Made by a program: the position numbers and the translations under genes | Notes under the pieces: model-generated | The model's input: the letters and a program-made list of their open reading frames with translations, nothing else | The model's database searches: none | What the model was told of the DNA's origin: nothing | Part shown: one piece after another, positions 1 through 61,033 of the stretch | Layout of the letters: each line of letters begins with the position of its first letter | Numbering within the stretch: position 1 is the first letter of the stretch | Assembly (NCBI GenBank): GCA_035504945.1 | Contig: DATJRH010000011.1 | Coordinates: 3,448-67,447 of the forward strand | DNA from: Candidatus Aquilonibacter sp. | Lineage (GTDB): Bacteria > Verrucomicrobiota > Verrucomicrobiia > Limisphaerales > UBA11358 | Reading direction: 5' to 3' | Length of the DNA stretch: 64,000 nt

Positions 1-923
1 CAACCTTCGCGCCAATCGTAAAAAAGAACATTCGTAATGAAGGAATAACTGGCAAACCGGACATTCGTGACGCAATCAAGCCCGGCGGTCGGGCTTATGC
101 TGACAAAGTTGGTGCTGCCACCGGTCTTTAACGAGTAATAATCGGGAGAAATCGGAGTTAGAGATTGCGCGTTAAGTGAATCTTGATAATAAATGAAAGT
201 GTTGGTGCCTGTGGAGGTGAGTGCTCCAAAGTTGGTGCCTCTGGCGGAATTGGTGATGTAAAGGTCGGCGGCATTGGCCAGATAAACTTGCCCGGTATTT
301 GAATATGCAGCCACCGTTCCCATGGCATAAGCTAGCGGCGGCAAATCGAGGATGGCCTCGGCGTTGGTGCCAATCGACAGGTTCAATGCGCCCGCGCCTG
401 AAACCGGCTGGCCAGCAAGTGAGAAAGCGGGGTTGCCAGAAGCAGTGTAGTCGTTGGCAAAAGGATCGGTGGCAGTGGTGTCATTGGTGCCTACAGCATC
501 CACCGTGGAGGCAAAGATCAAGGTTGACGAGCCTTCCCAAATGCTCTGATTGCAAAATACCGGGCCGGTGACGGTCATGGATGATGCGGAAACAAATTCC
601 ATGTTCAGATTATAAAAAATCGCGAACTCAAAAACCGGGTAGTGTTGCACGAAGCGAAAAAATTCCTGAAAATTCGCAGCCGGATAATTGGAAGCCACGC
701 TGGTCACAGTATAAGGTGCAACCGTTTCGTTCCACACAATCGGCTGAGATAAATTCGTCGTCGTTTCCAGCTCGCCAAAAAAATAGCCGTCAGCCGGATT
801 TGTCGATGAAGACACCGTGACCATGCCGTTGGTGGCGCCAATCTGTAATGTCAGTGGTATTTGAGCCATTGCGGACAATCGCAGCAGCGTCGCCAGCAGG
901 AAAATTGAAAACCATTTTCTCAT
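1..923 (-). CDS. secreted protein, partial (3' end lies beyond the window start)
   Basis: The minus-strand frame is open from ATG at 923-921 to the window edge. I hand-checked the codons at both ends. N-terminus MRKWFSIFLLATLLRLSAMAQ looks like a signal peptide. It is followed by a ~70-aa module (TTTNLSQPIVW ... FQEFFRF) like the FYR-type module of seven other proteins here. It is absent from the ORF track because no stop lies in the window. Confidence 0.6.
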   Translation of the reverse strand, partial: MRKWFSIFLLATLLRLSAMAQIPLTLQIGATNGMVTVSSSTNPADGYFFGELETTTNLSQPIVWNETVAPYTVTSVASNYPAANFQEFFRFVQHYPVFEFAIFYNLNMEFVSASSMTVTGPVFCNQSIWEGSSTLIFASTVDAVGTNDTTATDPFANDYTASGNPAFSLAGQPVSGAGALNLSIGTNAEAILDLPPLAYAMGTVAAYSNTGQVYLANAADLYITNSARGTNFGALTSTGTNTFIYYQDSLNAQSLTPISPDYYSLKTGGSTNFVSISPTAGLDCVTNVRFASYSFITNVLFYDWREG

Positions 924-1079
924 CCGATTAACTTTTCCTTCCAGCGAATGAATTTATCTCTTTTCACTTGAAGCGTCCAAACAAAATACCTTCGCAAAAC
1001 TTGTGCATCCCATCACAATGTTTGTTCACCCACAGTTTTTTCTTTTACCTTCGTGCGTTTCCGTTTTCAATTGCGCCCC

Positions 1080-3101
1080 ATGTCGCGCGATTACGTTCTT
1101 GAAAATGCCAGGCCGGAGTTTCATCCGCGGATTGACTATGCGCGCGAACTCAATCCGCAGCAGCTTGCCGCCGTCACCGCGCCGCCCGGCCCGGCGCTCG
1201 TCATCGCCGGCGCCGGTTCGGGCAAGACGCGCACGCTTACCTATCGCGTCGCGTATCTGCTCGAACAAGGCATTCCTGCCGACCGGATTTTGCTGCTCAC
1301 ATTCACGAACAAGGCCGCCGGCGAAATGATGCGGCGCGTCTCGGATTTGATCGGACGCGAATTGCGCGAGCTTTGGGGCGGCACGTTCCATTCCATTGGC
1401 GCGCGGATTTTGCGCTCGCACGCCGAGGCGCTCGGCTATCACCGTGACTTCACGATTCTCGACCGCGACGATGCGAAGGATTTGATCAAAGCCTGCGTCG
1501 CCGACGCCGGCATCGAAACCAAGGGCACGCATTTTCCGAAACCGGAGGTTCTGAACGAAATTTTTTCGCTCGCCGTCAACACGCACAAGACGACGGACGA
1601 AATTCTCGAAACGCAATTCAACTACTTCGAGCAGTTCGCGTCGCAAATCGCCGACCTCGGCCAGCGTTACACAAAACGCAAGCGCGCGACGAACGCGATG
1701 GACTTCGACGATTTGCTCGCCCTCTGGCTGAAACTGCTTCAGGAAAACACCGACGTGCGCGAACATTATCAACGCCGCTTCCAGTTCATCCTCGTGGATG
1801 AATATCAGGACACGAACAAATTGCAGGGCGACCTGATTGACCTGCTCGCCGCGCGAACCAAAAATGTCACCGTCGTTGGCGACGATGCGCAAAGCATCTA
1901 CGCCTGGCGCGGCGCGAATTTCCTGAACATCCTCGATTTTCCAAAGCGTTATCCCGGCGCGAACGTTTTCAAGATCGAAACCAATTACCGCAGCACGCCG
2001 GAAATTTTGAAGGTCGCCAACGCCGCGATTGCCGCAAATAAAAATCAATTTGCCAAGGAACTTGCGCCGTCGCGCAAGTCCGGCCTCAAGCCCGCGCTCG
2101 TCGCGTGTGTGGACGCCGCGCAACAGGCCGCGTTCATCGCGCAGCGCGTCGCCGAATTTCCCGACGAAGGCGTGAATCTCAACGAAGTCGCCGTGCTTTA
2201 CCGCTCGCACTTTCACGCGCTGGAATTGCAGCTTGAGCTGACCAAGCGCCACATTCCCTTCTCCATCACGAGCGGCATCCGCTTTTTCGAGCAGGCGCAC
2301 ATCAAGGACGCAACGGCTTATTTGAAGTTCGTCATCAATCCGCGCGATGAAATTTCCTTCAAACGCCTCGCGCAATTGCATCCGGGCATCGCCGCGAAGG
2401 GCGCCGACAAACTTTGGAAAATCTTTTCGGGGAAAATGGAAGGCAACGAGCTGGCCGTCTCAAAAAATCCAATCGCGACGGCGTTGCAAGGTTGTTCCAA
2501 AAATGTCAGCGCAAAGGCCGCGACGGCTTGGATGCAATTTGTCGCGACGATTTCCCAGCTTGAAGACGAAGCCGTCCGCAAAAGCGCGGCGAAGATGTTG
2601 CGGCTCGTGATTGACGCCGGCTACGACGATTATTTGAAGGAAAATTTTGCGAACTACCGCAACCGGTTGGAAGATTTGGAGCAGCTCGCCGTCTTCGCCT
2701 TTCAATTCAATTCCACGGAGGAATTTTTGACGCAACTCGCGCTGCTCACCAACGTCGAGGCCGAGGACGATCAGACGGCTAAGGACGACACGGAAAAAAT
2801 CAAGCTCTCGACCATTCATCAGGCGAAGGGACTGGAATTCGACGCGGTTTTTGTCATCATGCTTTGTGACGGAATGTTTCCATCGGCGCGCTCGATTGAA
2901 AGCGACGACGGCGAAGAGGAAGAGCGCCGGCTGTTTTACGTTGCCATCACACGCGCGAAGAATGAGTTGTATTTGAGCTATCCGCTGATTCGCGCCGGCT
3001 TCGGCAAGTCTGGCGGTGACGGAATGCAGCAACCGTCGCGTTTCCTGTCGGAAATTCCCGGCGACCTGTTGAACCAGTGGAATCTGCGTTCGCGCTATTA
3101 A
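1080..3101 (+). CDS. UvrD/PcrA/Rep-family ATP-dependent DNA helicase
   Basis: Walker A AGAGSGKTRTL, TFTNKAAGEM, LVDEYQDTN, GDDAQSIYAWRGA, TNYRS, LSTIHQAKGLEFD, VAITRAK. ATG at 1080 is preferred over the GTG at 1053 used by the track. Confidence 0.9.
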   Translation: MSRDYVLENARPEFHPRIDYARELNPQQLAAVTAPPGPALVIAGAGSGKTRTLTYRVAYLLEQGIPADRILLLTFTNKAAGEMMRRVSDLIGRELRELWGGTFHSIGARILRSHAEALGYHRDFTILDRDDAKDLIKACVADAGIETKGTHFPKPEVLNEIFSLAVNTHKTTDEILETQFNYFEQFASQIADLGQRYTKRKRATNAMDFDDLLALWLKLLQENTDVREHYQRRFQFILVDEYQDTNKLQGDLIDLLAARTKNVTVVGDDAQSIYAWRGANFLNILDFPKRYPGANVFKIETNYRSTPEILKVANAAIAANKNQFAKELAPSRKSGLKPALVACVDAAQQAAFIAQRVAEFPDEGVNLNEVAVLYRSHFHALELQLELTKRHIPFSITSGIRFFEQAHIKDATAYLKFVINPRDEISFKRLAQLHPGIAAKGADKLWKIFSGKMEGNELAVSKNPIATALQGCSKNVSAKAATAWMQFVATISQLEDEAVRKSAAKMLRLVIDAGYDDYLKENFANYRNRLEDLEQLAVFAFQFNSTEEFLTQLALLTNVEAEDDQTAKDDTEKIKLSTIHQAKGLEFDAVFVIMLCDGMFPSARSIESDDGEEEERRLFYVAITRAKNELYLSYPLIRAGFGKSGGDGMQQPSRFLSEIPGDLLNQWNLRSRY

Positions 3102-33906: not shown

Positions 33907-34140
33907 GCGGAAAGTGGAACAGATCTTTCAAAAGAATGCTTTCCATCCTTTGCCAGACTTAAACCATTTATTGCCCCGCATTTTTGCGGAAAAATGAGTC
34001 GTGCGCGTTGAGCCAGCGCCGTGGCCGCGAAATCTTTGTAGCGCGTGAATTGAATTTTCCAAAAGTTCTGTGGGAACGAAATCCGTAGCGTCGGACTGTC
34101 ACCGACGACAACCCGGCGCTGACACAGCGCCGCTACAGCG

Positions 34141-34480
34141 GAAGATGCCGCCCCGACGGGGCTTGAATTTGATTTGGGTGGTGGTTCTACAAAGATGCCG
34201 CGCCGACGGCGCTGTGGAGTGCGGCGATAATAGCCCGGCCTTTCAAGGCTGGGTTAAAATGCAAAAATAAATTAGTCCCGCAGGGACGGCAGACAATGTG
34301 TCGGCCGTCTGCAAAGACCTTTCGTCCTTGACGGGACTTTGAAAATTTCCAAATCGTGAACCCAGCCATGAATGGCTGGGCTATCGTCAAAGACAGATGC
34401 CGCCCCGCGCAATAACTGGAATTTGGTTTGGGTTGTGGTTCTACAAAGATGTCGCGCCTACGGCGCTACGGCAGGCCGCA
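34141..34480. repeat. REP-like structured intergenic block with a ~75-bp direct repeat pair and several hairpins
   Basis: 34141-34225 and 34393-34480 share AGATGCCGCCCC...GAATTTG.TTTGGGT.GTGGTTCTACAAAGATG.CGCGCC.ACGGCGCT. Hairpins: GACGGC..GCCGTC, and CCCAGCCAT-GA-ATGGCTGGG (9-bp perfect stem). Confidence 0.6.
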
Positions 34481-34698
34481 AACGTCGCGCAGGCGTTTGG
34501 TCATGACGAACAGGCATGGGCGATATATCAACGTCCATTCCACACGGGGATTTTCAACGGGGACGACGGACGATTTTCCTTTGATTGTCGGAGCTTGTCC
34601 CAAGTAATGACCAAAACCGGGTCTAATGCGGTTTTTAGTTGCATTTATTCTGGTTGAGGTGTAAATCGGCAGCGGTAAGAGGCGAAAGGAATCCATTT

Positions 34699-36746: not shown

Positions 36747-37154
36747 TCACGCCAGCTTCTTCGCAATGTGCTCGTCGAGGATTTCCTGCACGGTCAGGGC
36801 GACGATGACTTTGTGGCTACGCTTGAAGAAGGATTCAATTTCGCGCAAGGCGTCGTCGGAATAATCAAACGACACGAAGAAACCTTTCTCGCAATCTTCG
36901 CGCATCATCATGGCTTCAAAGGAATCAATGTCGGGACGACCGACTTTGTCTTTTTGTTTCACTTGAATCGGATACCAGCGTTCTTTCAGGGCGAGTTCGC
37001 CTTCCTGTTTTTTGCGGGGCGTGGCGGCGGAACTCACGGGATAAATGCGGCCATCCACGCCCATGTCACCGACCTGGACTTTGTTCGGGATGCCGCCGAG
37101 AGCGATGACGGCCCGGTTTTCAAATTCAAATGGCGGAATGGCGTCACTTTGCAT
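36747..37154 (-). pseudogene. C-terminal Mrr-like nuclease-domain remnant of a methyltransferase-nuclease fusion (locus A)
   Basis: FEFENRAVIALGGIPNKVQVGDMGVDGRIY...WYPIQVKQKDKVGRPDIDSF aligns by eye with YQFQWWALGLVGARPVEQKKGADHGIDGKIL...IIIQVKGGKTGVKDVRDL of 57714..58574. The methyltransferase part is missing. Confidence 0.6.
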
Positions 37155-38577
37155 TTTTCTTTCCAGACGAACGTTTGCGTGGAATCCGGTAAACAATTTT
37201 TTGAGGATGTTGTGGAAGTTTCCATTTTGCCGGCTTGTCCCTCAATGCAACGACGTTTGGTTGTGACTCAAACTCCAGTGTGTTGGCAGTTCGATAAAGA
37301 CAAAAATTTTCAGCAATTCCGTTGGTTGTGGTTTCCTGCTCAACATTTGTGTTTGTGTTGCTGCCGAAAAGCTCCAAATGATTTTCCGCAACGGTCTTTC
37401 TTTTCTTCGTAACGTAATCGCCCATTGGCCGGCTGCCAAAGCGCAGTCGGTTGACGATTGCGCCAATTGCTTCATTGCTGTTATCAATTCCAATCCACCG
37501 TCGCCCTAAATTCCCGGCGGCAATCAGCGTTGTTCCCGAACCAGCAAAACAATCCAACACCAAGTCTCCCGGATTGGAGGATGCGCTGATAATTTGTTCC
37601 AGCATCTCGATGTTCTTCTCGGTTGGATAGCCCGTAATTTCGATGTTCTGGTTGTGAGCATCTTTGAAATCCAGCCAGATGTCTTGGACGGGAATCCCAT
37701 TGCTGTCGTCCAGGTAGATTTTTCGTCGGGGATTGCCGTTTGAGGACCAGAAGATTTCTCCTCTTCGATCCATTTCCTCCAGAACACTCGGCGGGAACTG
37801 CCAGTGCTTGCCGGGCGGCGGCAAAACACCGCGCCAAGGCTTCCCCGTTTCACCATTTCGGATGCCGGGCGCATGAATGGGAACTTTTTTGAATCTGCGT
37901 CCGGTTGATGCTTCCTCGTAAGTATATTCTTTTTTGGCGGTTTCTTCCGACCAGGCAATCACGGGACGATTCCAGATGTAAGTTTCTGTCTTTGAGTAAA
38001 ACAAAATATAATCGGAAATGTTTCCGTAAGTGCGGCGGGTGTAATTCTTGGTGTTGCACTTCTTTCGAGTGATAAAGTTTCTGAAATTTGCAGCGCCAAA
38101 AACTTCGTCCATCACGATCTTCATTGGAAATGCCATGTTTTCGTCAAGGTGGACATAGATTGAGCCGCGCGCCGAAAGTAATTCGCGGAGCAGAACCAAA
38201 CGTTCCCGAAGGAATTCGACAAACGCCGAGCCGGACAGCAAATCATGGTAGGCAATTTTCTGCTCGCGGGATTCAAAGACACTGTTCGTTGAATAGGGTG
38301 GATCAATATAAACGAGCGACACTTGCCCCCGAACAGCGGAATCATCCAAAAGAGTTCCGAGAATTTCCACATTGTCGCCGAAATAGAGCCTGTTTGCCCA
38401 CCCCTGCGAATGTCTTGGCGGCTGGGCGACGGTTAATTTTGCCTTCGGGCAATCGGCAATGATTTCAGAAGCCGTTCGCTTACCCTCATAATCCAAATTA
38501 AACTGACCACTTGTTCGCTGGTCGTGGCGATTTTCGACCGAGCCATTGGTTTTTGATTTTGGAATGCCGGTTGCCAT
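37144..38577 (-). CDS. DNA methyltransferase, beta class (DPPY)
   Basis: SLVYIDPPYSTNS (motif IV) and VLDCFAGSGTTLIAAGNLGRRWIGIDN (motif I). Visibly AT-richer than the flanks. Confidence 0.85.
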   Translation of the reverse strand: MATGIPKSKTNGSVENRHDQRTSGQFNLDYEGKRTASEIIADCPKAKLTVAQPPRHSQGWANRLYFGDNVEILGTLLDDSAVRGQVSLVYIDPPYSTNSVFESREQKIAYHDLLSGSAFVEFLRERLVLLRELLSARGSIYVHLDENMAFPMKIVMDEVFGAANFRNFITRKKCNTKNYTRRTYGNISDYILFYSKTETYIWNRPVIAWSEETAKKEYTYEEASTGRRFKKVPIHAPGIRNGETGKPWRGVLPPPGKHWQFPPSVLEEMDRRGEIFWSSNGNPRRKIYLDDSNGIPVQDIWLDFKDAHNQNIEITGYPTEKNIEMLEQIISASSNPGDLVLDCFAGSGTTLIAAGNLGRRWIGIDNSNEAIGAIVNRLRFGSRPMGDYVTKKRKTVAENHLELFGSNTNTNVEQETTTNGIAENFCLYRTANTLEFESQPNVVALRDKPAKWKLPQHPQKIVYRIPRKRSSGKKNAK

Positions 38578-38586
38578 GGGAGATTT

Positions 38587-39483
38587 TCAGTTTCGCAACC
38601 AATCGAGAGACAGGCGTTCTGGAATCATTCGCAAAGTTAACACCACGATTCTGCCCTTCTGACTTTGCTCAAGCCGCGCGTAATCATCCCACATGGAGCC
38701 GAGCAAAAGACCCGGACCGTCGTTTAAGAAAATCAATTTGGTTCGAAGCTTGTTGAGCTTCGTATACATGAACAACTCCTGCGCGCAGTTAAAATAACCG
38801 CCGGTGCGATCATCCTCTTGAGCGCCTCCCCGGTCAGAATCGTATCGCGCCAAACCGATTGCCAGAATCGAAGTTTTATCCTCATCGTATATGACGAAAT
38901 CCACGGGGCGGGAAAGATTCGGATAGCCGGTGAAAATATCGTGAAGCAGAATATCTTTGCCAGCGCCTTCCGGTCCTTTAACTGTCAGGGAGGGAAATTT
39001 CTCACGCAGCGTTTTGAAAAGTTTTGCGGTGAGGTCATACCCCTTTTTGCCTCGATCTTTGTATTCCCAAAGAACCGCACAAAGAGCCTCGTCTGGAATC
39101 GGGCGGGTTTTATACGCCTTTTGGACCTCTTGAACTGGCCGGAATTCTTTCCCGAAATATTCGATGATTTTTTCGCACGACGTCTTTTTTTTTAACATTT
39201 CCACCGGAGTATTGGGACTGACATATTTGCGAAAAACCCGCGCAAGTTGAATTCGCATCCAGCCTTCGGAAACGTCGCAAATCTGCCGGAACAAAGCCGC
39301 AGAAGATTCAGATGATTGGATGAATTGGCCAAATAGAATGAGAACCGGTTTATACAACTCGCAGGCTTGGGGCAAAATATCGGGGTAGAATTCGCCAGTG
39401 GCGAGCGTGATCCAATTATGCGCGTCTTTTTTGTAATCGCCGAAATTCGTTCTGATCGTTTTGTTTTTTTGGTTCAAGCGCAT
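38587..39483 (-). CDS. putative type II restriction endonuclease (possibly DpnII/MboI-like)
   Basis: 298-aa ORF 9 nt upstream of the methyltransferase on the same strand. RGKKGYDLTAKLF and PVDFVIYDEDKTSILAIGLARYDSDRGG resemble, from memory, the DpnII-family blocks (FDFVI...IE.NFY..GSK). Family assignment is unverified. Confidence 0.5.
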   Translation of the reverse strand: MRLNQKNKTIRTNFGDYKKDAHNWITLATGEFYPDILPQACELYKPVLILFGQFIQSSESSAALFRQICDVSEGWMRIQLARVFRKYVSPNTPVEMLKKKTSCEKIIEYFGKEFRPVQEVQKAYKTRPIPDEALCAVLWEYKDRGKKGYDLTAKLFKTLREKFPSLTVKGPEGAGKDILLHDIFTGYPNLSRPVDFVIYDEDKTSILAIGLARYDSDRGGAQEDDRTGGYFNCAQELFMYTKLNKLRTKLIFLNDGPGLLLGSMWDDYARLEQSQKGRIVVLTLRMIPERLSLDWLRN

Positions 39484-39489
39484 TGAGAT

Positions 39490-39852
39490 TTAACAGATTT
39501 GCCCGACCGGCACGAGAGCGTTTTGAAAATTATTTTCGCCGAAAATCTGGTCGAGCATGACTTTGACGTAGTGACTGGCGTGCCAGTCGCAGTGGTAATA
39601 AAAGCTGCCGGTCTTTTTGAGGACGCGGGCCAGTTGCACGCAGCGCGGGCGTCCCGCAGTCGCGGGATAAATCAAATCCACGCAGGCGTCGGGCAATTTG
39701 GCGAGCTGTTCCAGATTGTCGCCGCAATAAATGACGCGGGTGTCGAGGAGGCTGCTGGCGCGTAGCGGCGTTCGGGAGAGCGCCGCTGATTTCCGGCTTT
39801 TGGGCTTCACCGGCGGACTGCCGTCCGCCGCTACGTCCGATTTCTTTGCCAT
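39490..39852 (-). pseudogene. N-terminal remnant of a methyltransferase-nuclease fusion (locus A), with an internal deletion
   Basis: VIYCGDNLEQLAKLPDACVDLIY is followed directly by ...RPRCVQLARVLKKTGSFYYHCDWHASHYVKVMLDQIFGENNFQN, then an unrelated tail and a stop. The DPPF motif IV block expected after DLIY is missing. Confidence 0.6.
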
Positions 39853-39923
39853 GCGGCGAAGTTTGCGCGGGAAAACTATCGGCGTCAATTCCCGTCAAGT
39901 TAGGTATTTTCGCGCAAATAAAA

Positions 39924-54302: not shown

Positions 54303-56539
54303 AACACGCTCACGCTCAAAGGCGGCAGATAAAATTCCGCCGAGTTTTGCTGGCTGTGGCACGGAACATTTTCCGCCGTGACGCCACCCAAATTTCCCTT
54401 GTTGCCGCCGCAATAAATCCCGGCGTCGCTGTTCAACATTTCGCGCCACTTGCCGGCGCGCGGCAGGCCAAGACGGTATTTTTCGCGCGGCACGGGTGTG
54501 AGATTCAAAATAACGGCGAGCTGACTCGTAAAATCAGAATTTTGCCGGACAAATGAGAGCACACTGTTCTCAGTGTCGTTGCAATCAATCCAAAAAAATC
54601 CGGCGTGATCGTAATCCGCCTGCCACAACGCAGGTGATTTGGTGTAAAGCCGGTTCAAATCCTCGACAAATTTTTGCAAGCCACGATGAAACGGTCCGGC
54701 GTCAAGCAGCCACCAGTCGAGTTGCGCGTTTTCGTTCCATTCGACGCTCTGGCCGAATTCGCCGCCCATAAACAGTAATTTTTTTCCGGGGAAAAGCCAT
54801 TGGTAGCCGAGCAGCGCGCGCAGGTTCGCAAATTTCTGCCAGTCGTCGCCGGGCATCCGGCCAATCAATGAACGTTTGCCGTGGACGACTTCGTCGTGCG
54901 AGAGTGGCAGAATGAAATTCTCGTGATGGTGGTAGAGCATCGCGAAGGTGAGGTCGTTCTGATGATATTTGCGGTGAACCGGTTCATGCTGGAAATAGCC
55001 GAGCGTGTCGTGCATCCAGCCCATGTTCCATTTAAACGAAAAGCCAAGCCCGCCGAGATGCGGCGGGCGTGTGACGAGCGGCCAAGCGGTGGATTCCTCG
55101 GCGATGGTCACGATGCCGGGAAATTCCGAGTGCGCGATGTGGTTAAATTTTTTTAGAAATTCAATCGCCTCGAGATTTTCGCGCCCGCCGTATTGGTTTG
55201 GAATCCACTCGCCGGGTTTGCGCGAGTAATCGAGGTAGAGCATCGAGGCGACGGCATCCACGCGCAGGCCATCAATGTGAAACCGGTCGCACCAGAACAG
55301 CGCGTTGGCGACGAGAAAATTGTTCACCTCGTTGCGGCCAAAATTGAAAATCAGCGTGCCCCAATCTTGATGTGCGCCCTTCCGTGGGTCCTCATGCTCA
55401 AACAGCGCCGTGCCGTCGAATTTGGCGAGCGCCCACTCGTCGCGCGGAAAATGCGCCGGCACCCAATCCACGATGACGCCGATGCCGGCCTCGTGCAGCG
55501 CATTGACGAGAAATTGGAAATCGTCCGGCGTGCCGAAGCGGCTGGTCGGCGCATAAAAGCCGGTAACTTGATAACCCCACGACGGATAAAAGGCGTGCTC
55601 GGCCACGGGCAGAAATTCGACATGCGTGAAACCCATCCGCTTGACGTAAAGCACGAGCGGCTCGGCAAGTTCGCGGTAGCTCCAGGATTCCGTCGCGGAT
55701 TTTTTTTGCCACGAGCCGGCGTGGACTTCATAAATGCTCATTGGCGAGCGCAGGGCGTCGCGTTCGCGACGTTTTTTCAGCCAGGCAGCATCGCTCCATT
55801 TGAATTTTTTGGTGTCCCAAACGATGGCGGCATTTTTCGGCGGGACTTCAAAGAAAAATCCGAACGGGTCGGTGTTGAGCTTGATGTTTCCGTGCGCGTC
55901 GCGGATTTCAAATTTATAATGCGCGCCCTGCCCCACGCCGGGAACAAAAATTTCCCAGACGCCGGACGCGCCGAGCAGCCGCAGGGGATGAAAACGGCCA
56001 TCCCAATTATTGAAATCGCCGACGACGCTGACGCGCTGCGCGTTCGGCGCCCAGACGGCAAAGCTCGCACCGGGAACGCCGTCAATGATCCGCAAATGCG
56101 CGCCGAGCTTGTCGTAGATTTTCCGTTCGTCGCCCTTGCCGAAGAGGAACAAATCGGACTCACCGAGCGTCGGCAGAAAAGAGAACGCATCGCGCGTGCG
56201 GCGCACACGGCCTTGATGATCGGTGATGACCAGGTCATAGGCGTAAACCTTGTTTGCGGATTTGGTGACGCCTTCAAATACATCGGTGTCGGGAATCCGC
56301 TTCAGTTCGAGTTTTGGTTTGTCTTTTTCGTGAGTGGGCTGGATTTCAACTTTGGCGGCGTCGGGAAGAAGCGCGCGGACGACGAGACCGGATTTATCGC
56401 CGAGCGGGTGCATGCCGAGCAGCGTGTGGGGTGATTGATGGATCAACTCAACCAAGCTGTGTAGTTCTTCGCGCGAAAGAATCATTGCGGCGAGGATAGC
56501 AACCACGGGCGAAAGCAGCGATATAATTTCAAATGACAT
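54287..56539 (-). CDS. glgB: 1,4-alpha-glucan branching enzyme
   Basis: FAVWAPNAQRVSVVGDFNNWDG, GIGVIVDWVPAHF, HIDGLRVDAVASMLY, AEESTAWP, LSHDEVVHGK. Start is ATG 56539 or 56485. The track extension to 56797 is rejected. Confidence 0.9.
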   Translation of the reverse strand: MSFEIISLLSPVVAILAAMILSREELHSLVELIHQSPHTLLGMHPLGDKSGLVVRALLPDAAKVEIQPTHEKDKPKLELKRIPDTDVFEGVTKSANKVYAYDLVITDHQGRVRRTRDAFSFLPTLGESDLFLFGKGDERKIYDKLGAHLRIIDGVPGASFAVWAPNAQRVSVVGDFNNWDGRFHPLRLLGASGVWEIFVPGVGQGAHYKFEIRDAHGNIKLNTDPFGFFFEVPPKNAAIVWDTKKFKWSDAAWLKKRRERDALRSPMSIYEVHAGSWQKKSATESWSYRELAEPLVLYVKRMGFTHVEFLPVAEHAFYPSWGYQVTGFYAPTSRFGTPDDFQFLVNALHEAGIGVIVDWVPAHFPRDEWALAKFDGTALFEHEDPRKGAHQDWGTLIFNFGRNEVNNFLVANALFWCDRFHIDGLRVDAVASMLYLDYSRKPGEWIPNQYGGRENLEAIEFLKKFNHIAHSEFPGIVTIAEESTAWPLVTRPPHLGGLGFSFKWNMGWMHDTLGYFQHEPVHRKYHQNDLTFAMLYHHHENFILPLSHDEVVHGKRSLIGRMPGDDWQKFANLRALLGYQWLFPGKKLLFMGGEFGQSVEWNENAQLDWWLLDAGPFHRGLQKFVEDLNRLYTKSPALWQADYDHAGFFWIDCNDTENSVLSFVRQNSDFTSQLAVILNLTPVPREKYRLGLPRAGKWREMLNSDAGIYCGGNKGNLGGVTAENVPCHSQQNSAEFYLPPLSVSVFQSES

Positions 56540-57347
56540 AATCGTGGACGCCGGCGAACGGCGCGTGGCCGTTTGAAAAATTGGTTGGATTAGCTTGGAT
56601 TGGGTCGGATTTAGTTGGACTGGGTTTGGTTTCAGCCGGTGCATCCGGTCCGCGATTGTCCATCCGCGCCCAATCGGGCATGGACAAGCCATGCTGAACT
56701 CGAACGAGCCAATCGGCCCATTTTTTGCCGTATTCGCCGCCGCCAAGGGTCTCCGCCAGCAAACTCTTTTCGTGTATCGCAAAGAACCTATCGACACGGC
56801 TTTTTATTTCTTCCTTTTCCCTACGCTTGTCCGCCTCCTCGTCCTCATCTGCCATTTGCCGGTTCCAACGCTCGCGTTTGATCAACGTTCGCACGGCACG
56901 GTGGCCGTCGCACTGCAATTGGGACAATTTCGGGAGCACTTCGTAAATAATTTTGCAGCGTTTTTCCGTATCGGTCTCCTTTTTCAAACGTGCGCTGGTC
57001 ACGCATATAAGTTCCGCCGCGATCACACTGGCAAAACGGTCGCTGATTTCCATGCCATCAGCCGCCTCGTCCAAATCTTCAGCCTGCTCGGTCAGATTGC
57101 TCACGAGAAGCCGCGTTTCCTGCTGCTGCAACCACTCCGGATAACCGCGCTGCTTCCATTCGGAAAGATTCTGTTCGGTGATGGGACGTCCCTCAAACTG
57201 CTCTTGCAATAAATGCAGCGCGTCCGGTTCGCAATTGAGCCATTTCACCAGTTCCCTGCCCGGTTCACCGTCCTCGATGCGGCGATTCAACTGGTCGCGG
57301 ATGTATTTGGGCAAGCGTCCGATTTTGCCGACGTGAGTGGTGCTCAT
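56529..57347 (-). CDS. hypothetical protein with N-terminal RLPKYIRDQLNRRIEDGE (possibly DNA-binding) and a coiled-coil, charged middle
   Basis: ATG 57347 lies 8 nt after the KTSC gene. The C-terminal ~30 aa read through a 10-bp tandem repeat and may not be genuine protein. Confidence 0.55.
   Translation of the reverse strand: MSTTHVGKIGRLPKYIRDQLNRRIEDGEPGRELVKWLNCEPDALHLLQEQFEGRPITEQNLSEWKQRGYPEWLQQQETRLLVSNLTEQAEDLDEAADGMEISDRFASVIAAELICVTSARLKKETDTEKRCKIIYEVLPKLSQLQCDGHRAVRTLIKRERWNRQMADEDEEADKRREKEEIKSRVDRFFAIHEKSLLAETLGGGEYGKKWADWLVRVQHGLSMPDWARMDNRGPDAPAETKPSPTKSDPIQANPTNFSNGHAPFAGVHDYVI
56581..56630. repeat. 5 x 10-bp tandem repeat upstream of glgB
   Basis: TTGGTTGGAT TAGCTTGGAT TGGGTCGGAT TTAGTTGGAC TGGGTTTGGT. 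Confidence 0.75.
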
Positions 57348-57354
57348 AATTTTG

Positions 57355-57546
57355 TCAATGGTAGCGACCGCGAATATGCTGGTTGTAATACGACCCCATG
57401 GACGAAGCATTCATGAATTCCCGATAGACCGTTGGCGGCACGCCGGGATGGTCGTAAATGCGGCCGGTGTGGAATTCGACGGTGAGCGTGTAGCCATCGT
57501 AGCCAACGGCGCGAATCGAACTTGAATTTACGGGCATCATGCTCAT
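57355..57546 (-). CDS. KTSC domain-containing small protein
   Basis: VNSSSIRAVGYDGYTLTVEFHTGRIYDHPGVPPTVYREFMNASSMGSYYNQHIRGRY fits the KTSC pattern. TTTAAT-N8-ATG lies upstream. Confidence 0.7.
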   Translation of the reverse strand: MSMMPVNSSSIRAVGYDGYTLTVEFHTGRIYDHPGVPPTVYREFMNASSMGSYYNQHIRGRYH

Positions 57547-57713: not shown

Positions 57714-58574
57714 TTACAACTCCAACGCTTTTTGTTCGTGCTGTTTCCTTTTTGATTCCGGGGCTTTTTTGAAGGTTTCGTCCAAGGCGGCGACGGTGGA
57801 CGGGCGTTCGATGCCTTTGCCGTCCATCAATTCTTTCACGGTGCGGAGCTGGAGGCGCGGGTATTTCTGCCGGTTCAGCTTGTGCTCGTAGAATCCGGCG
57901 CTGGCGGCCTCGGCCTGCATCTCGCGCGTGGGTGGTTGCAGGGAAATCAGAACGCCGATGGCGGCTTGCTCGCGGTCCAGCACGCCGCGCAAATCCCGCA
58001 CGTCCTTCACGCCGGTCTTGCCGCCCTTGACCTGGATGATGATTTGCTCCGGCTTGGCCACGGTGAGGTCGTCGCGGAAAAGGATTTTGCCGTCAATACC
58101 GTGGTCCGCGCCTTTCTTCTGCTCGACGGGGCGCGCGCCGACGAGGCCGAGCGCCCACCATTGGAACTGATATTTGTCATCCTCGGCGAGTTGCGCGGCT
58201 TCGTTGGGCGTGGTGGGTTCGCCGATGATGCGGACGGTCGAAGTTCGACTTCCCATTTCGGTAGGAGTCGAGGTAACGAGACTCTGACTATTTTCGGGCC
58301 GAGAAGTTTGAGCCTCCTCACGTCGGCTCCTACTGGATTCAGAAAGAGAACCGCTCACGAATTTCAGGCGGCTGCCGTAGGCGTCTTGCAGGCGGTTTTT
58401 GATGAGGGAAATGGCCAGTTGCGTCACGTCAATGCCAATCCAGTCGCGGCCGAGTTTTTCGGCGGCGTCAATCGTCGTGCCGCAGCCGCAGAACGGGTCG
58501 AGAACCACGTCGCCGGGATTGGAACTTTGCTTGATGATGCGTTCCAAAAGCGTTCCTGTTCTTAATTGCTCCAT
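57714..58574 (-). pseudogene. C-terminal part of a methyltransferase-Mrr fusion (locus B): motif I region plus nuclease domain
   Basis: Begins at ...LLERIIKQSSNPGDVVLDPFCGCGTTIDAAEKLGRDWIGID (motif I), then GADHGIDGKILF...IIIQVKGGKTGVKDVRDLRGV (Mrr-like). It lacks motif IV, which lies in the 60522..60908 fragment. Confidence 0.65.
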
Positions 58575-59563
58575 CCGCGTAACTTTTGACCAAATTCCAA
58601 GTATTCAGGCAAAGGATAGATTTGCTTCTTTGCCGGCAATAAAATTTCATCCCGCAATGCTGCCTTGAACTCGGTTTCACCGCCATGCCAACCGATCATA
58701 CGCAACCGCAGAAATTCTTTTTCGCTGCAAATTATTGCATAATTTGGTTGAACCGTAATTAGAGCGTGGTCAAACGCGCGATGGTGGAGAGCGCAAAGAG
58801 AAAGCCCATTTTTGATTTCATCTGTCCCGCGTTCATGCTCCACAGGAACGATGTGCGCTGCGTCCAACAAATCCAACTGAACACCACAAACGCAGCAGCG
58901 ATGACTGTATGCCTTCAAAACATTTGCCCGAAAACGAGCGTCGCGAATTTTTCGATTCACAGTCTGCAAAACTTGCCGCCGCTCTTTTGGTTCGATGTCG
59001 TCAAGGTCAAAGTCCACCGCCTCTTCGCGCGAGATTCGTTCTAATGCTTTGGTTTCGAGAACTGCGGCTGACGTTTGGTGCAGTTCCGATGAGCCTAAAA
59101 CGTATGAGGTGAAGAAATCAGGGCGAAATGCAATCGCGACTTCTTGATTGTCCCGGGCCTGTGGCGCGAATCCGTTCCTGACCGCTTTTTCCAACGCCTC
59201 GCGTTTTATTTGAATTGATGGCGACCGCCCCTCCATCGAAATTTGATGTTTGGTTGCGTCGAAGCCCGCAAAAACTCTCAAAGCATCTGACCATCCCAAA
59301 AGCAGCGTTTTCCAACCTTCACGAAGTTCAATTTGGCTAACGCCAGTTACCTGAATACGAAACTCATTCGGGTCTCGCGGAAATCCACCGTGCGTCAAAT
59401 TCCAGATATAAACCAGCAACGAAACCTTTGTATCTCCTTTGAAAATGGATAACGCAAACGGATGGTCGTCGCGTGATGATAAAATCAAAACGTCCCATCC
59501 ACATGCGTGAATAGCTTCAATGACGAGATCGAGCAGTCTTGGTTTTTGTAGGATTTTTGCCAT
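58562..59563 (-). CDS. HNH-family restriction endonuclease candidate
   Basis: CCVCGVQLDLLDAAHIVPVEHERGTDEIKNGLSLCALHHRAFD (HNH_2-type motif) in the C-terminal third, with a ~200-aa N-terminal domain of unknown specificity. Adjacent to a methyltransferase. Confidence 0.7.
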   Translation of the reverse strand: MAKILQKPRLLDLVIEAIHACGWDVLILSSRDDHPFALSIFKGDTKVSLLVYIWNLTHGGFPRDPNEFRIQVTGVSQIELREGWKTLLLGWSDALRVFAGFDATKHQISMEGRSPSIQIKREALEKAVRNGFAPQARDNQEVAIAFRPDFFTSYVLGSSELHQTSAAVLETKALERISREEAVDFDLDDIEPKERRQVLQTVNRKIRDARFRANVLKAYSHRCCVCGVQLDLLDAAHIVPVEHERGTDEIKNGLSLCALHHRAFDHALITVQPNYAIICSEKEFLRLRMIGWHGGETEFKAALRDEILLPAKKQIYPLPEYLEFGQKLRGWSN

Positions 59564-60479
59564 AGGGGATAGATGCCTCCTTTAAGAGGAGTGGTTGTTC
59601 GTCTTCCTGAAATCTCATTTTTGAACCTCGGATGTAATCTTCATTGATTTCCATTGTCATCCAATACCGCGCCATGTGTTCCGCAGCCTCACCAGCCGAG
59701 CCAGAACCGCCGAAGGGATCAAGCACCATGTCGCCTTCGTCGGTGAGAAAGCGGATGAAAAATTCGGCAAATGCAACCGGAAACCGCGCCGGGTGCAATT
59801 GCAAATTGTTTTCTTTGCACCGCCGAATGTAACCGCTGTTGCTTTCGGAATTTGCCAACGCCAGAACATTGGGTGCAATAGCTCCTCCGTTGTTTGTCAG
59901 AAACGAGGTTGGGCTGATGTCGTGCTCCGATGGTCTGCGACCGGCGTTGTAAGATTTGCGATTCAGCAAATCTTGCATCGCGTCGCTGTAAGCCAACAAA
60001 ACTTTCCGATTGTCGCTCTTGGGGTTTTCTGTCTTGCTTAACCACCAAACAACGTTGACAGAATCTTTCAGCCGGACGCGGCGAACCGTAACCCACTCGG
60101 CAGGCGTAGGCAGGCGCGTTGGATTGTAGTGAAACAATTCTTGCGCCAGATGAAATCCTCCCTCGTTGCACAGTTTGATCAACAGTTCATATTGGTAAAG
60201 CGAGCGCGTCGGCGCGCCTTTGCGGTATGCACCTCCCAAATCCAAAACGAAACTTCCGTCACTTTTCAAAATTCGGTGAATTTCGTTCGCAAACGGCATG
60301 AACCATTGAACATATTCGTGGTCTTCTTTATTTCCGTAGGCTTTTTTCCGGGTGAGCGCGAATGGTGGAGAGGTTACGACCAAATTGATTGATTCATCAG
60401 GAAGTTCTTTCATCAATTCCAGCGAATCGCCCAAAAGAGCTTTCCCGTATTCGGTCTCGAAATATGGTTCGGTTTGCAT
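59517..60479 (-). CDS. DNA methyltransferase, beta class (SPPF, so N4-cytosine or N6-adenine)
   Basis: NLVVTSPPFAL (motif IV) and VLDPFGGSGSAGEAAE (motif I). 47-nt overlap with the HNH gene. Confidence 0.85.
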   Translation of the reverse strand: MQTEPYFETEYGKALLGDSLELMKELPDESINLVVTSPPFALTRKKAYGNKEDHEYVQWFMPFANEIHRILKSDGSFVLDLGGAYRKGAPTRSLYQYELLIKLCNEGGFHLAQELFHYNPTRLPTPAEWVTVRRVRLKDSVNVVWWLSKTENPKSDNRKVLLAYSDAMQDLLNRKSYNAGRRPSEHDISPTSFLTNNGGAIAPNVLALANSESNSGYIRRCKENNLQLHPARFPVAFAEFFIRFLTDEGDMVLDPFGGSGSAGEAAEHMARYWMTMEINEDYIRGSKMRFQEDEQPLLLKEASIPYGKNPTKTKTARSRH

Positions 60480-60521
60480 CAGCGATTTGATTTTACTCGC
60501 AGGGAATTGAATGGTCGAGCT

Positions 60522-60908
60522 TTAGGCGGTCGGGTCGCAGTGGAGATAAAGCGAGCCGGTGGGTTTGAGGACGCGGCGGAGTTCGACCAGGCGCGGGCAC
60601 ATCATGGCGAGGTAGGCCATCATGTCGTTGGTGCCGAGAAAGGTTTTGAACGCCTGCATGACTTCGCCGACCTTGCCGGGCTGGAGAATCAGTTCCTCAT
60701 AAACGCGCTGGCTTTCCTGATTCCACGTCCAGGTGTCCTCAAAGGCGCGAATCTGGCTGGCGGCGGCGGAGCCGTCCTTTTCCTGAAAGAAGGCGTTGTA
60801 GTTCTGGGCGGAGTTGAAGGGCGGATCGAGATAAACGAGGTCAACGGATTCATCCTTGAGGTAACGCCGGAGGATGTCGAGGTTGTCGCCGTAATAAAGC
60901 GTGCCCAT
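60522..60908 (-). pseudogene. N-terminal part of a methyltransferase-Mrr fusion (locus B)
   Basis: MGTLYYGDNLDILRRYLKDESVDLVYLDPPFNS...MCPRLVELRRVLKPTGSLYLHCDPTA, then TAA where homologues (compare 39490..39852) continue SHY.K..LD.IFG. Confidence 0.65.
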
Positions 60909-60920
60909 TTGAGAGTGGAT

Positions 60921-60969
60921 GGTTGAGGGTTGAGAGTTGAGAGTCAAGGCGGAAGGCGGAGAGCGGCGC
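60921..60969. repeat. 7 x 7-bp tandem repeat 12 nt upstream of the 60908 start
   Basis: GGTTGAG GGTTGAG AGTTGAG AGTCAAG GCGGAAG GCGGAGA GCGGCGC. Confidence 0.75.
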
Positions 60970-60998
60970 AGGGGAAGCGAGGGCTGGGAGCCAGCGGC

Positions 60999-61033
60999 TT
61001 GAAGTCCGGGCAAAACGTGACAAAATTAGAGGA
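60999..61033 (+). promoter_or_regulatory. TTGAAG-N16-CAAAAT-N7-GTG promoter abutting the start of 61034..61780
   Basis: TTGAAG at 60999-61004, CAAAAT at 61021-61026, GTG at 61034. Confidence 0.45.

Follow-up and report, generated by a model that had tools for sequence, protein, structure and literature searches.

A BstEII-type restriction-modification cassette in place of the core of a methyltransferase-Mrr gene, at a position that holds other inserts in related alleles

How does a complete restriction-modification (R-M) pair come to lie between the two ends of another gene, with almost no DNA besides its own open reading frames (ORFs)? The question is raised by locus A, a group of four closely packed minus-strand ORFs (39888..39490, 39483..38587, 38577..37144 and 37196..36747; 132, 298, 477 and 149 aa, respectively) in a contig assigned to Candidatus Aquilonibacter sp. 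(Verrucomicrobiota; GenBank assembly GCA_035504945.1, contig DATJRH010000011.1, positions 3,448 to 67,447). Throughout, "the window" denotes this whole stretch of 64,000 nucleotides (nt), and coordinates are window positions. An initial annotation, made from the letters alone, had proposed that a DpnII-like nuclease and a methyltransferase with a DPPY motif replaced the core of a methyltransferase-Mrr gene at locus A, and that the same kind of event took place more recently in a paralogous gene, locus B. The replacement withstood our analysis; the DpnII assignment and the relative ages did not. We consider it likely that a BstEII-type R-M cassette replaced the core of the host gene, that the same slot has been reused by other inserts, and that the two remaining ends of the host gene, its arms, serve as portable homology arms.

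The host gene and the R-M pair inside it

Pfam searches place an N6_N4_Mtase domain in the first ORF (partial, E 1.7e-4) and in the third (E 2.3e-46), and an Mrr_cat domain (PF04471, E 8e-6) in the fourth; the second has no match. As a reference for the host family we used a 511-aa composite made from two intact family proteins. By tblastn, reference residues 13-136 align to 39783..39511 and residues 381-511 to 37142..36750, with residues ~137-380 missing; by blastn, homology of the N-terminal (N) arm to intact alleles stops at 39519. The two fragments share 89-93% DNA identity with intact alleles, the last 135 nt of the N arm being 99% identical to one of them (L103), and the C-terminal (C) arm, which holds only the Mrr-like domain, as had been proposed, is 92% identical to residues 381-511. 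A query made by joining the fragments retrieved more than 3000 proteins, including intact N6_N4_Mtase+Mrr_cat genes of about 420-550 aa at >90% identity, so the similarity is not a matter of chance. Judged by this homology, a single gene of the N6_N4_Mtase+Mrr_cat family (~510-550 aa when whole) has its N-terminal end in 39852..39519 and its C-terminal end in 37143..36747. The copy in the window is thus a disrupted family member, its two domains split and residues ~137-380 and the DPPF block absent.

The N-arm ORF extends into the cassette leader as far as a stop at 39490. It reads (39490..39888, minus strand) ...VIYCGDNLEQLAKLPDACVDLIY|PATAG|RPRCVQLARVLKKTGSFYYHCDWHASHYVKVMLDQIFGENNFQN and is then out of the family frame. 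Compared with intact relatives, 38 residues (IDPPF...YIDYM) have become the five residues PATAG, a net loss of 33 codons. The missing DPPF block and the later loss of frame had been correctly noticed at the outset, and were taken to mean that locus A, being more decayed, is older than locus B. However, a metagenome contig with the same cassette and junctions (L095) still has the DPPF block (IDPPFNSNRNYEVFWGETKEKRAFEDRHENTKAYIDYL), which makes the deletion a later, private lesion of the window allele; for this reason, the decay says nothing about age relative to locus B. Moreover, the C-arm ORF is intact. Its ATG at 37155 overlaps the final codons of the methyltransferase gene (37196 offers an alternative TTG start), the D...QxK motif (GVDG...IQVK) is still present, and the ORF's ratio of nonsynonymous to synonymous substitution (dN/dS) is ~0.08-0.13 against other alleles and ~0.08 between two cassette alleles that share a junction. 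An antisense ORF (36768..37412, plus strand) is open across the C arm and has equivalents in L085, L090, L095, L098, L105 and L117; GC-rich coding DNA probably gives rise to it as a shadow ORF, although it persists in parallel with the low divergence of the arms at synonymous sites.

The cassette between the arms consists of a 35-nt leader, the nuclease gene (R), a 9-nt spacer and the methyltransferase gene (M), with 6 nt between the stop of the N remnant and the start of R. It spans 2375 bp and takes the place of ~245 central host codons (residues ~137-380). Its GC content of 47.9% is the minimum among 2.37-kb stretches of the window (mean 55.4%, standard deviation 2.4), in line with the AT-richness first seen by eye, and the R-then-M order of two intact ORFs (298 and 477 aa) is likewise as first described.

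For the nuclease, the picture changed. Neither Pfam nor NCBIfam, DpnII included, gives any match at E<=0.1, whereas a phmmer search of the Protein Data Bank (PDB) yields a single match at E<=10, to BstEII (9ibq_A, E 9.6e-86, query 12-298 on chain 3-287, 144/284 residues identical, 51%). A DpnII/MboI-like endonuclease cutting GATC was therefore rejected. By this alignment, 38587..39483 encodes a full-length BstEII homolog, a Type IIP restriction endonuclease, and because the two proteins align end to end, GGTNACC rather than GATC is the recognition site to be expected. Relatives of the nuclease occur at 80 loci (45-94% identity; scan of one genome per species), and at all 80 the nuclease gene is adjoined by a homolog of the 477-aa methyltransferase.

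The methyltransferase matches PF01555 over residues 86-373 and, among PADLOC models, best matches MTase_II (PDLC03354, E 6e-142); its nearest structures are Type III Mod, M.MboIIA and DpnA, and it shares 34% identity with the methyltransferase of the host gene. Its length of 477 aa, C-tail included, is constant in the loci of the five closest relatives of the nuclease (L004-L008). Both cassette genes are under strong purifying selection relative to close relatives, with dN/dS of 0.02-0.05 for the nuclease and 0.05-0.09 for the methyltransferase. The pair is probably an active, ordinary Type IIP R-M system recognising GGTNACC, in which M would methylate this site, as m6A or m4C, and R would cut sites that lack methylation. 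Taken alone, the BstEII-type pair merely adds one more, ordinary member to an enzyme family already known.

The host gene is whole in most of its relatives. Contig L106 has it as a single unbroken ORF of 549 aa, all 16 host-family alleles on predicted viral contigs (IMG/VR) are intact and colinear, and so are 50 of the 57 metagenome alleles that could be assessed; five of the others are interrupted and two internally deleted. The interrupted alleles all belong to the subclade nearest the window (5/19, as against 0/38 further off). In intact alleles, the arms have mean identities of 81% and 78% to the reference and the middle only 59.5%. A comparison of the genes adjoining the intact host gene revealed no consistent partner gene.

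Other occupants of the slot, locus B and a deleted second copy

We looked up truncated family members and scanned metagenomes with the C arm, which gave 541 confirmed C-arm matches. The same slot of this one gene family holds at least eight different inserts, the BstEII pair included; four of them are predicted or candidate pairs of a methyltransferase and a nuclease, and one is a defence-type kinase. L085 contains a C5 methyltransferase with an Eco29kI endonuclease, L098 an EcoRI-type methyltransferase with a GmrSD_N/HNH protein, and L105 a 763-aa protein kinase that matches the defence kinases mad6 / PD-T4-6 in PADLOC. In L117, an unannotated 311-aa ORF (599..1534) is followed downstream by an N6_N4 methyltransferase and is a candidate for a new restriction endonuclease; L090 has an unannotated 181-aa ORF (203..748) and an IS200-like transposase. 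Neither the 311-aa nor the 181-aa ORF matches a Pfam or PADLOC model. Two further inserts are seen at their right ends only, on short contigs: in L182 a gene for an HNH nuclease that overlaps, with its stop, the start of a C-arm ORF of a form that heads a protein cluster of 323 members, and in L184 unassigned ORFs, including one of 132 aa (265..663) that has no hit in precomputed Pfam annotation.

The left junctions of the inserts scatter over ~55 nt, from HCDWHA| to FGENNFQNEI|; at the right, three inserts end within ~15 nt of each other at (A)IPPFEFEN, one ends 48 nt beyond that point and two others ~120 nt upstream of it. The seven inserts that are fully sequenced all have the orientation of the host gene, as does the insert at locus B. 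Their leaders measure 13-68 nt and, in six of the seven, their trailers -11 to +12 nt, and in all seven alleles the C arm has kept a start codon and an unbroken ORF, 117-194 aa long. The two conserved ends of the host gene thus behave like a reusable docking site.

Locus B has the same organisation, a methyltransferase and a nuclease between two fragments of a methyltransferase-Mrr gene (Table 1). The resemblance between the two C-termini that had been noticed by eye is real but distant: aligned through the family reference, locus B shares 28-35% identity with the locus A family (E 1e-15 to 1e-17). Intact homologs of ~575 aa are common, up to 88% identical, and come from Verrucomicrobiota wherever they are labelled; together with the labels of the closest loci, this makes Verrucomicrobiota the probable source of the window as well. 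The left junction at locus B, HCDPTA|, is at the same structural position as HCDWHA| in L090. From these alignments, locus B is read as an event of the same kind that affected a distant paralog, as initially proposed. Just downstream of it lies a member (56529..57410, minus strand) of an unannotated ORF family (MxxxGKIxRLPxxIRDxLNRR...) that has no Pfam match and is also found near host-family genes in L117 (4665..5363) and L118 (82..948).

The window also holds 74 nt of a second host-family copy, encoding WIGIDISPTACRVMAKRLRDVCGLP with indels. This remnant is situated where the syntenic contig L106 (4846..8393) has its intact 549-aa host gene, divergent from a Gly-rich ORF; by this synteny, the window once had two host copies, one of which has been deleted nearly completely. 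The same synteny, showing a separate copy, led us to reject the remnant as a product of the locus A insertion or of a long target duplication. Directly after it, 34000..34470 is rich in repeats, with two copies of ...GGCGCG(A/G)CATCTTTGTAGAACCAC(A/C)ACCCAAA(C/T)CAAATT... and hairpins such as AGCCCAGCCATTCATGGCTGGGT that resemble repetitive extragenic palindromes (REP-like). Similar REP-like elements abut the right junction of the L090 insert, which has the IS200/RAYT-like transposase.

Some family members depart from the intact form in other ways. Three proteins (P0006, 253 aa; P0014, 310 aa; P0064, 216 aa) and two loci (L133, L160) have in-frame internal deletions that join the N arm straight to the Mrr domain; on the right they, too, break near ...AIPPFEFENW. 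Such natural variants lose the methyltransferase core and consistently retain the Mrr domain. Large clusters of 168-aa Mrr-only proteins were considered as further cassettes and dismissed, since these proteins start at an internal Met of frameshifted genes. In L084 (6302..12911), the arms are well conserved and the middle is riddled with stops and frameshifts; its neighbours, genes for a Phage_integrase and a Toprim/DUF5906 primase-like protein, suggest that it is carried on an integrative element. Partial copies of the host 3' end are found 0.7-2.2 kb downstream of the host gene (L002 3534..3600, L092 9738..10316, L093 4576..5845, L099 1126..1215, L107 1835..1947 and L108 3333..3557), with heterogeneous ORFs of ordinary genes in between. 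Most begin at reference residues ~326-344, and the copy in L002 and the first piece in L093 comprise only the last ~20-23 residues. They could be tandem decayed copies or single-crossover integrations.

Table 1. Positions of the features at locus A, at locus B and of the host-family remnant in the window
Feature	Positions	Strand	Basis or remark
N-terminal arm of disrupted host gene (N6_N4_Mtase+Mrr_cat family)	39519..39852	-	ATG at 39852
Scar of secondary in-frame deletion (catalytic DPPF block gone)	39652..39666	-	alignment to family reference; L095 comparison
Whole inserted cassette, 2375 bp	37144..39518	-	borders by blastn to intact alleles
Restriction endonuclease, BstEII family, 298 aa	38587..39483	-	PDB 9ibq_A match; site GGTNACC predicted
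Cognate beta-class DNA methyltransferase, 477 aa	37144..38577	-	PF01555; IDPPYSTN motif IV before FAGSGTT motif I
C-terminal arm, intact Mrr_cat ORF	36747..37155	-	PF04471 E 8e-6; host homology restarts at 37143 (blastn)
Locus B, distant methyltransferase-Mrr paralog with replaced core	57714..61013	-	ORFs, Pfam, intact homologs
Locus B N fragment	60522..61013	-	
Locus B insert, N6_N4 methyltransferase	59517..60479	-	Pfam
Locus B insert, MTaX1+HNH_2 nuclease	58562..59563	-	Pfam
Locus B C fragment (motif I + Mrr_cat)	57714..58574	-	Pfam
Remnant of second host-family copy, nearly all deleted	34469..34542	-	84-87% nt identity to L003/L002

Junctions, spread and rival explanations

A Logan contig from run SRR8879135 is 100% identical to 39561..37026, and thus across both junctions. 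The unitig (L001) ends within the arms, 43 and 117 bases past the junctions, as would be expected if arm sequence common to several alleles in the sample made the graph branch. We then compared by DNA the five closest relatives of the nuclease (L004-L008, 90-94% identity). L004 has N-arm sequence and the identical left junction (...GAAAATAATTTTCAAAAC|GCTCTCGT...), with ~15 bases of host remnant at the right junction. At the left junction, L005 and L008 have ~25-30 decayed host bases left; at the right, L005 retains ~30 bases, and L008 has a decayed Mrr ORF that starts from the same right junction (55% identity, dN/dS 0.22) and shares FEFENRAV, with R for the consensus W, with the window. L006 and L007 lack any host remnant, and L095 has the entire arrangement. 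Different, unrelated genes flank the cassette in the window, in L005 and in L008, with no synteny among the three. These comparisons point to one ancestral substitution that gave rise to a composite now found in different contexts, its arms eroded to different degrees. The nested state is derived, since the R-M family and the host family are each widespread on their own, and it was not made in this genome, since the same junctions recur in other, non-syntenic genomes.

No direct repeats, target duplication or terminal inverted repeats are present at 39519 and 37143, no recombinase ORF lies beside locus A, and the 64-kb window contains no tRNA genes. The signature of a long duplication of the target, known from mobile R-M units (PMC2853133), is absent; locus A is a substitution. 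An R-M insertion accompanied by a long target duplication was rejected on the same grounds, there being no direct repeat and ~245 codons having been lost from the target, and a transposon- or integrase-borne island was rejected for want of a recombinase beside the locus, terminal repeats and a tRNA gene in the 64 kb.

Host-promoter read-through is the simplest reading of expression because the cassette brings almost nothing besides ORFs: the N remnant, R, M and the Mrr ORF would probably be transcribed as one operon from the promoter of the host gene, and the Mrr ORF may be translationally coupled to M via the overlapping ATG. The sole minus-strand terminator-like match, inside M, is at chance level. 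With regard to spread, each cassette would first have entered by illegitimate recombination, possibly assisted by microhomology. Once nested, the cassette would be flanked by conserved arms serving as portable homology arms, through which it could move into resident intact alleles, or have its arms refreshed from them, by homologous recombination. Three observations suggest such exchange with intact alleles in the community. When the window is compared with L095, whose junctions are the same, synonymous sites differ in a proportion (pS) of 0.62 for R and 0.70 for M, as against 0.20 for the junction-proximal N arm and 0.43 for the C arm. The arms are mosaic, in that the N arm of the window is 99% identical to that of intact L103 and only 95% to that of L095, and the nearest relatives shift along the C arm. 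Finally, relative to the partly syntenic L106, the arm proteins are 85-91% identical and the neighbouring chromosomal genes 60-64%.

Several points weigh against this account. GGTNACC is not depleted in the window (9 sites versus 8.15 expected, none within the locus), so long-term restriction pressure is not visible. A syntenic empty site for locus A was not found among the fetched loci, and the only syntenic contig, L106, corresponds to the other, deleted host copy. The minus-strand promoter scan, which found no consensus sigma-70-type promoter, is uninformative for this phylum. Most of the other interrupted alleles are known from single metagenome contigs. The pS values of the arms come from few sites (25-85 synonymous), and the higher GC content at third codon positions in the arms (0.65-0.72 versus 0.52-0.53) may partly explain their lower synonymous divergence; the mosaic comparison consists of identities over 100-135-nt segments, without a formal recombination test. 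In addition, the homology-arm model alone does not account for the clustering of junctions at the inner edges of the arms. AT-rich microhomology, such as that between the 3' end of M (GAAAGAAAAATGC) and the host (GAAGAAAAATTGC), possibly contributes to this clustering, as may selection to keep the Mrr ORF translatable.

The most serious alternative, which we regard as possible though doubtful, is that the locus is passive wreckage. A dispensable, often-transferred gene would tolerate independent illegitimate insertions, the arms would be undecayed remnants without a role, and the junctions would cluster because AT-rich patches (GAAAATAATTT; GAAGAAAAATTG...TTTGAATTTGA) favour microhomology joins with AT-rich foreign DNA. 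The variation of the junctions in nucleotide position fits this, as do the damaged N arms of the window (deletion) and L105 (frameshift), the progressive erosion in L004, L005 and L008, the resemblance of the M 3' end to the right-junction sequence of the host, and the frequency of in-frame and out-of-frame deletion variants (P0006, P0014, P0064, L133, L160, L183). Wreckage does not readily explain, however, why seven of seven fully sequenced cassette alleles have kept the C-arm ORF and its start codon intact, at dN/dS of ~0.08-0.13, why all cassettes are co-oriented and six of seven trimmed to their ORFs, or why the arms are far less divergent than the cassette across a shared junction. A second alternative is a selected operon of N remnant, R, M and Mrr, and not a broken gene, in which the C arm would act as a nuclease in its own right (such as a methylation-dependent or back-up effector) and be kept and co-expressed with any cassette upstream of it. 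The C-arm ORFs of 117-194 aa overlap or abut the last cassette gene with their starts, dN/dS is ~0.08 between two cassette alleles with the same junction, the D...QxK residues are kept, natural in-frame deletion variants retain the Mrr domain, and one such ORF heads the 323-member cluster. Even so, we think a functional Mrr module unlikely: the low dN/dS could also result from recombination with intact alleles, the cassettes of L004-L007 have no Mrr ORF, the L008 copy is decayed (55% identity, dN/dS 0.22), and none of the PADLOC models matches the Mrr fragment. An Mrr_cat domain on its own, lacking a DNA-binding partner domain, is not known to be active.

The remaining alternatives fare worse. 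A dedicated mobility mechanism at locus A appears very improbable. R-M units are known to move in such ways (PMC2853133), an IS200-like transposase is part of the L090 insert, the L084 host gene lies beside an integrase, and partial host 3' copies recur downstream of intact genes; yet locus A has no target duplication, terminal repeat, tRNA or recombinase, its target lost ~245 codons rather than being duplicated, and the junctions of different cassettes are up to 55 nt apart. Homing driven by the BstEII-type enzyme was rejected as well, because GGTNACC is under-represented and not enriched in the segment that was replaced: only 5 of 67 intact alleles have it there, where 13 sites would be expected, which leaves no target. 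We give hardly any credence to the idea that a frameshift divided a single M-Mrr fusion gene into the 477-aa methyltransferase and the Mrr fragment, with only the N fragment foreign and nothing nested. The two ORFs do overlap (37144..37196) and the cassette methyltransferase is a 34%-identical relative of the host enzyme, but identity to the host family is 92% for the Mrr fragment and only 34% for M, the 477 aa and C-tail of M are kept in L004-L007 without a downstream Mrr, none of the BstEII-type loci (80 scanned) outside the subclade of the window has an Mrr domain after M, and the N and C fragments map to one gene. The fusion was rejected on the contrast in identity and on the conserved length of M. 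Least credible of all is an assembly or binning artefact that fused unrelated DNA at repeated host-gene sequence. It would draw on the repetition of the arms across community members and on the Logan unitig ending inside both of them, but two independent assemblies are identical over both junctions and four contigs of other projects carry the same junctions with sequence divergence, which rules the artefact out for practical purposes. Substitution of the host core by the BstEII-type cassette, with reuse of the slot and arms that serve as homology arms, is thus the reading that we prefer.

Precedents and significance

None of the components is new, neither BstEII-type enzymes nor beta-class methyltransferases nor Mrr domains, and the position of the locus is unusual but has precedents. 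The BstEII R-M system itself (Type IIP, GGTNACC; PDB 9ibq/9ic8) resembles the cassette in the full-length alignment of the nuclease and in the beta-class methyltransferase immediately downstream; the locus A enzyme differs in being 51% identical, with its specificity inferred, and in residing inside another gene with hardly any flanking DNA of its own. In H. pylori, R-M units have been found inserted in Type II, IIG and III methyltransferase genes, where the target later decayed; these insertions have long target duplications on either side, and R-M systems that replace one another as alleles are documented as well (Furuta, Abe, Kobayashi 2010; PMC2853133). Locus A likewise has a complete R-M pair within a methyltransferase gene and a decayed target, but there is no duplication, ~245 codons were substituted, and one slot is reused by many unrelated cassettes.

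Exchangeable cassettes between conserved anchors are familiar from DpnI/DpnII/DpnIII of S. pneumoniae, the E. coli immigration control region yjiA-yjiN, and core and prophage defence hotspots, for which homologous recombination in the flanks is the accepted mechanism of exchange (PMC12707154, PMC10250203, PMC9122126). Here, too, unrelated restriction and defence cassettes occupy one position with conserved borders, and recombination in the flanks is what we infer. The anchors, however, are not separate core genes but the two ends of one coding gene that is intact in most relatives, occupancy destroys that gene, and the slot travels with it between unrelated chromosomal contexts. Domain movement in Type I, IIG and III methyltransferases (PMC3467074) shares the pattern of conserved ends and a hypervariable middle (78-81% versus 59.5%), but whole foreign genes, not another recognition domain, enter here. 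Integron gene cassettes are similarly compact, promoter-less, co-oriented and ORF-sized, and probably read from an upstream resident promoter; at this slot there is no integrase, attC/attI or array, and the junctions are not sequence-specific. In the literature searched we found no description of an intragenic slot in one methyltransferase-nuclease family that repeatedly holds unrelated, ORF-trimmed, co-oriented cassettes. Both the insertion of R-M units into R-M genes and the exchange of cassettes between conserved anchors were already known; what is new is the intragenic slot.

A more far-reaching version of the preferred reading, which we put forward only tentatively, is that the arms of this family and of its distant paralog form a portable intragenic docking site, where cassettes would replace the variable core, use the resident promoter, keep a functional Mrr nuclease and spread by homologous recombination, inactivating the resident enzyme as they are installed. 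R-M systems are regarded as selfish mobile units, and how compact ones without a mobility gene move is poorly understood. The locus suggests a route, namely to ride inside a widely shared, conserved gene whose ends provide homology for recombination, and the docking arrangement is seen twice in one 64-kb window, at loci A and B. If confirmed, it would add an intragenic class to the defence hotspots and provide a search rule for new defence genes, which would be sought in the content between the arms (e.g., the 311-aa, 181-aa and 132-aa ORFs). Nature would, moreover, have supplied a case in which incoming methylation systems come into conflict with a resident methyltransferase-Mrr enzyme.

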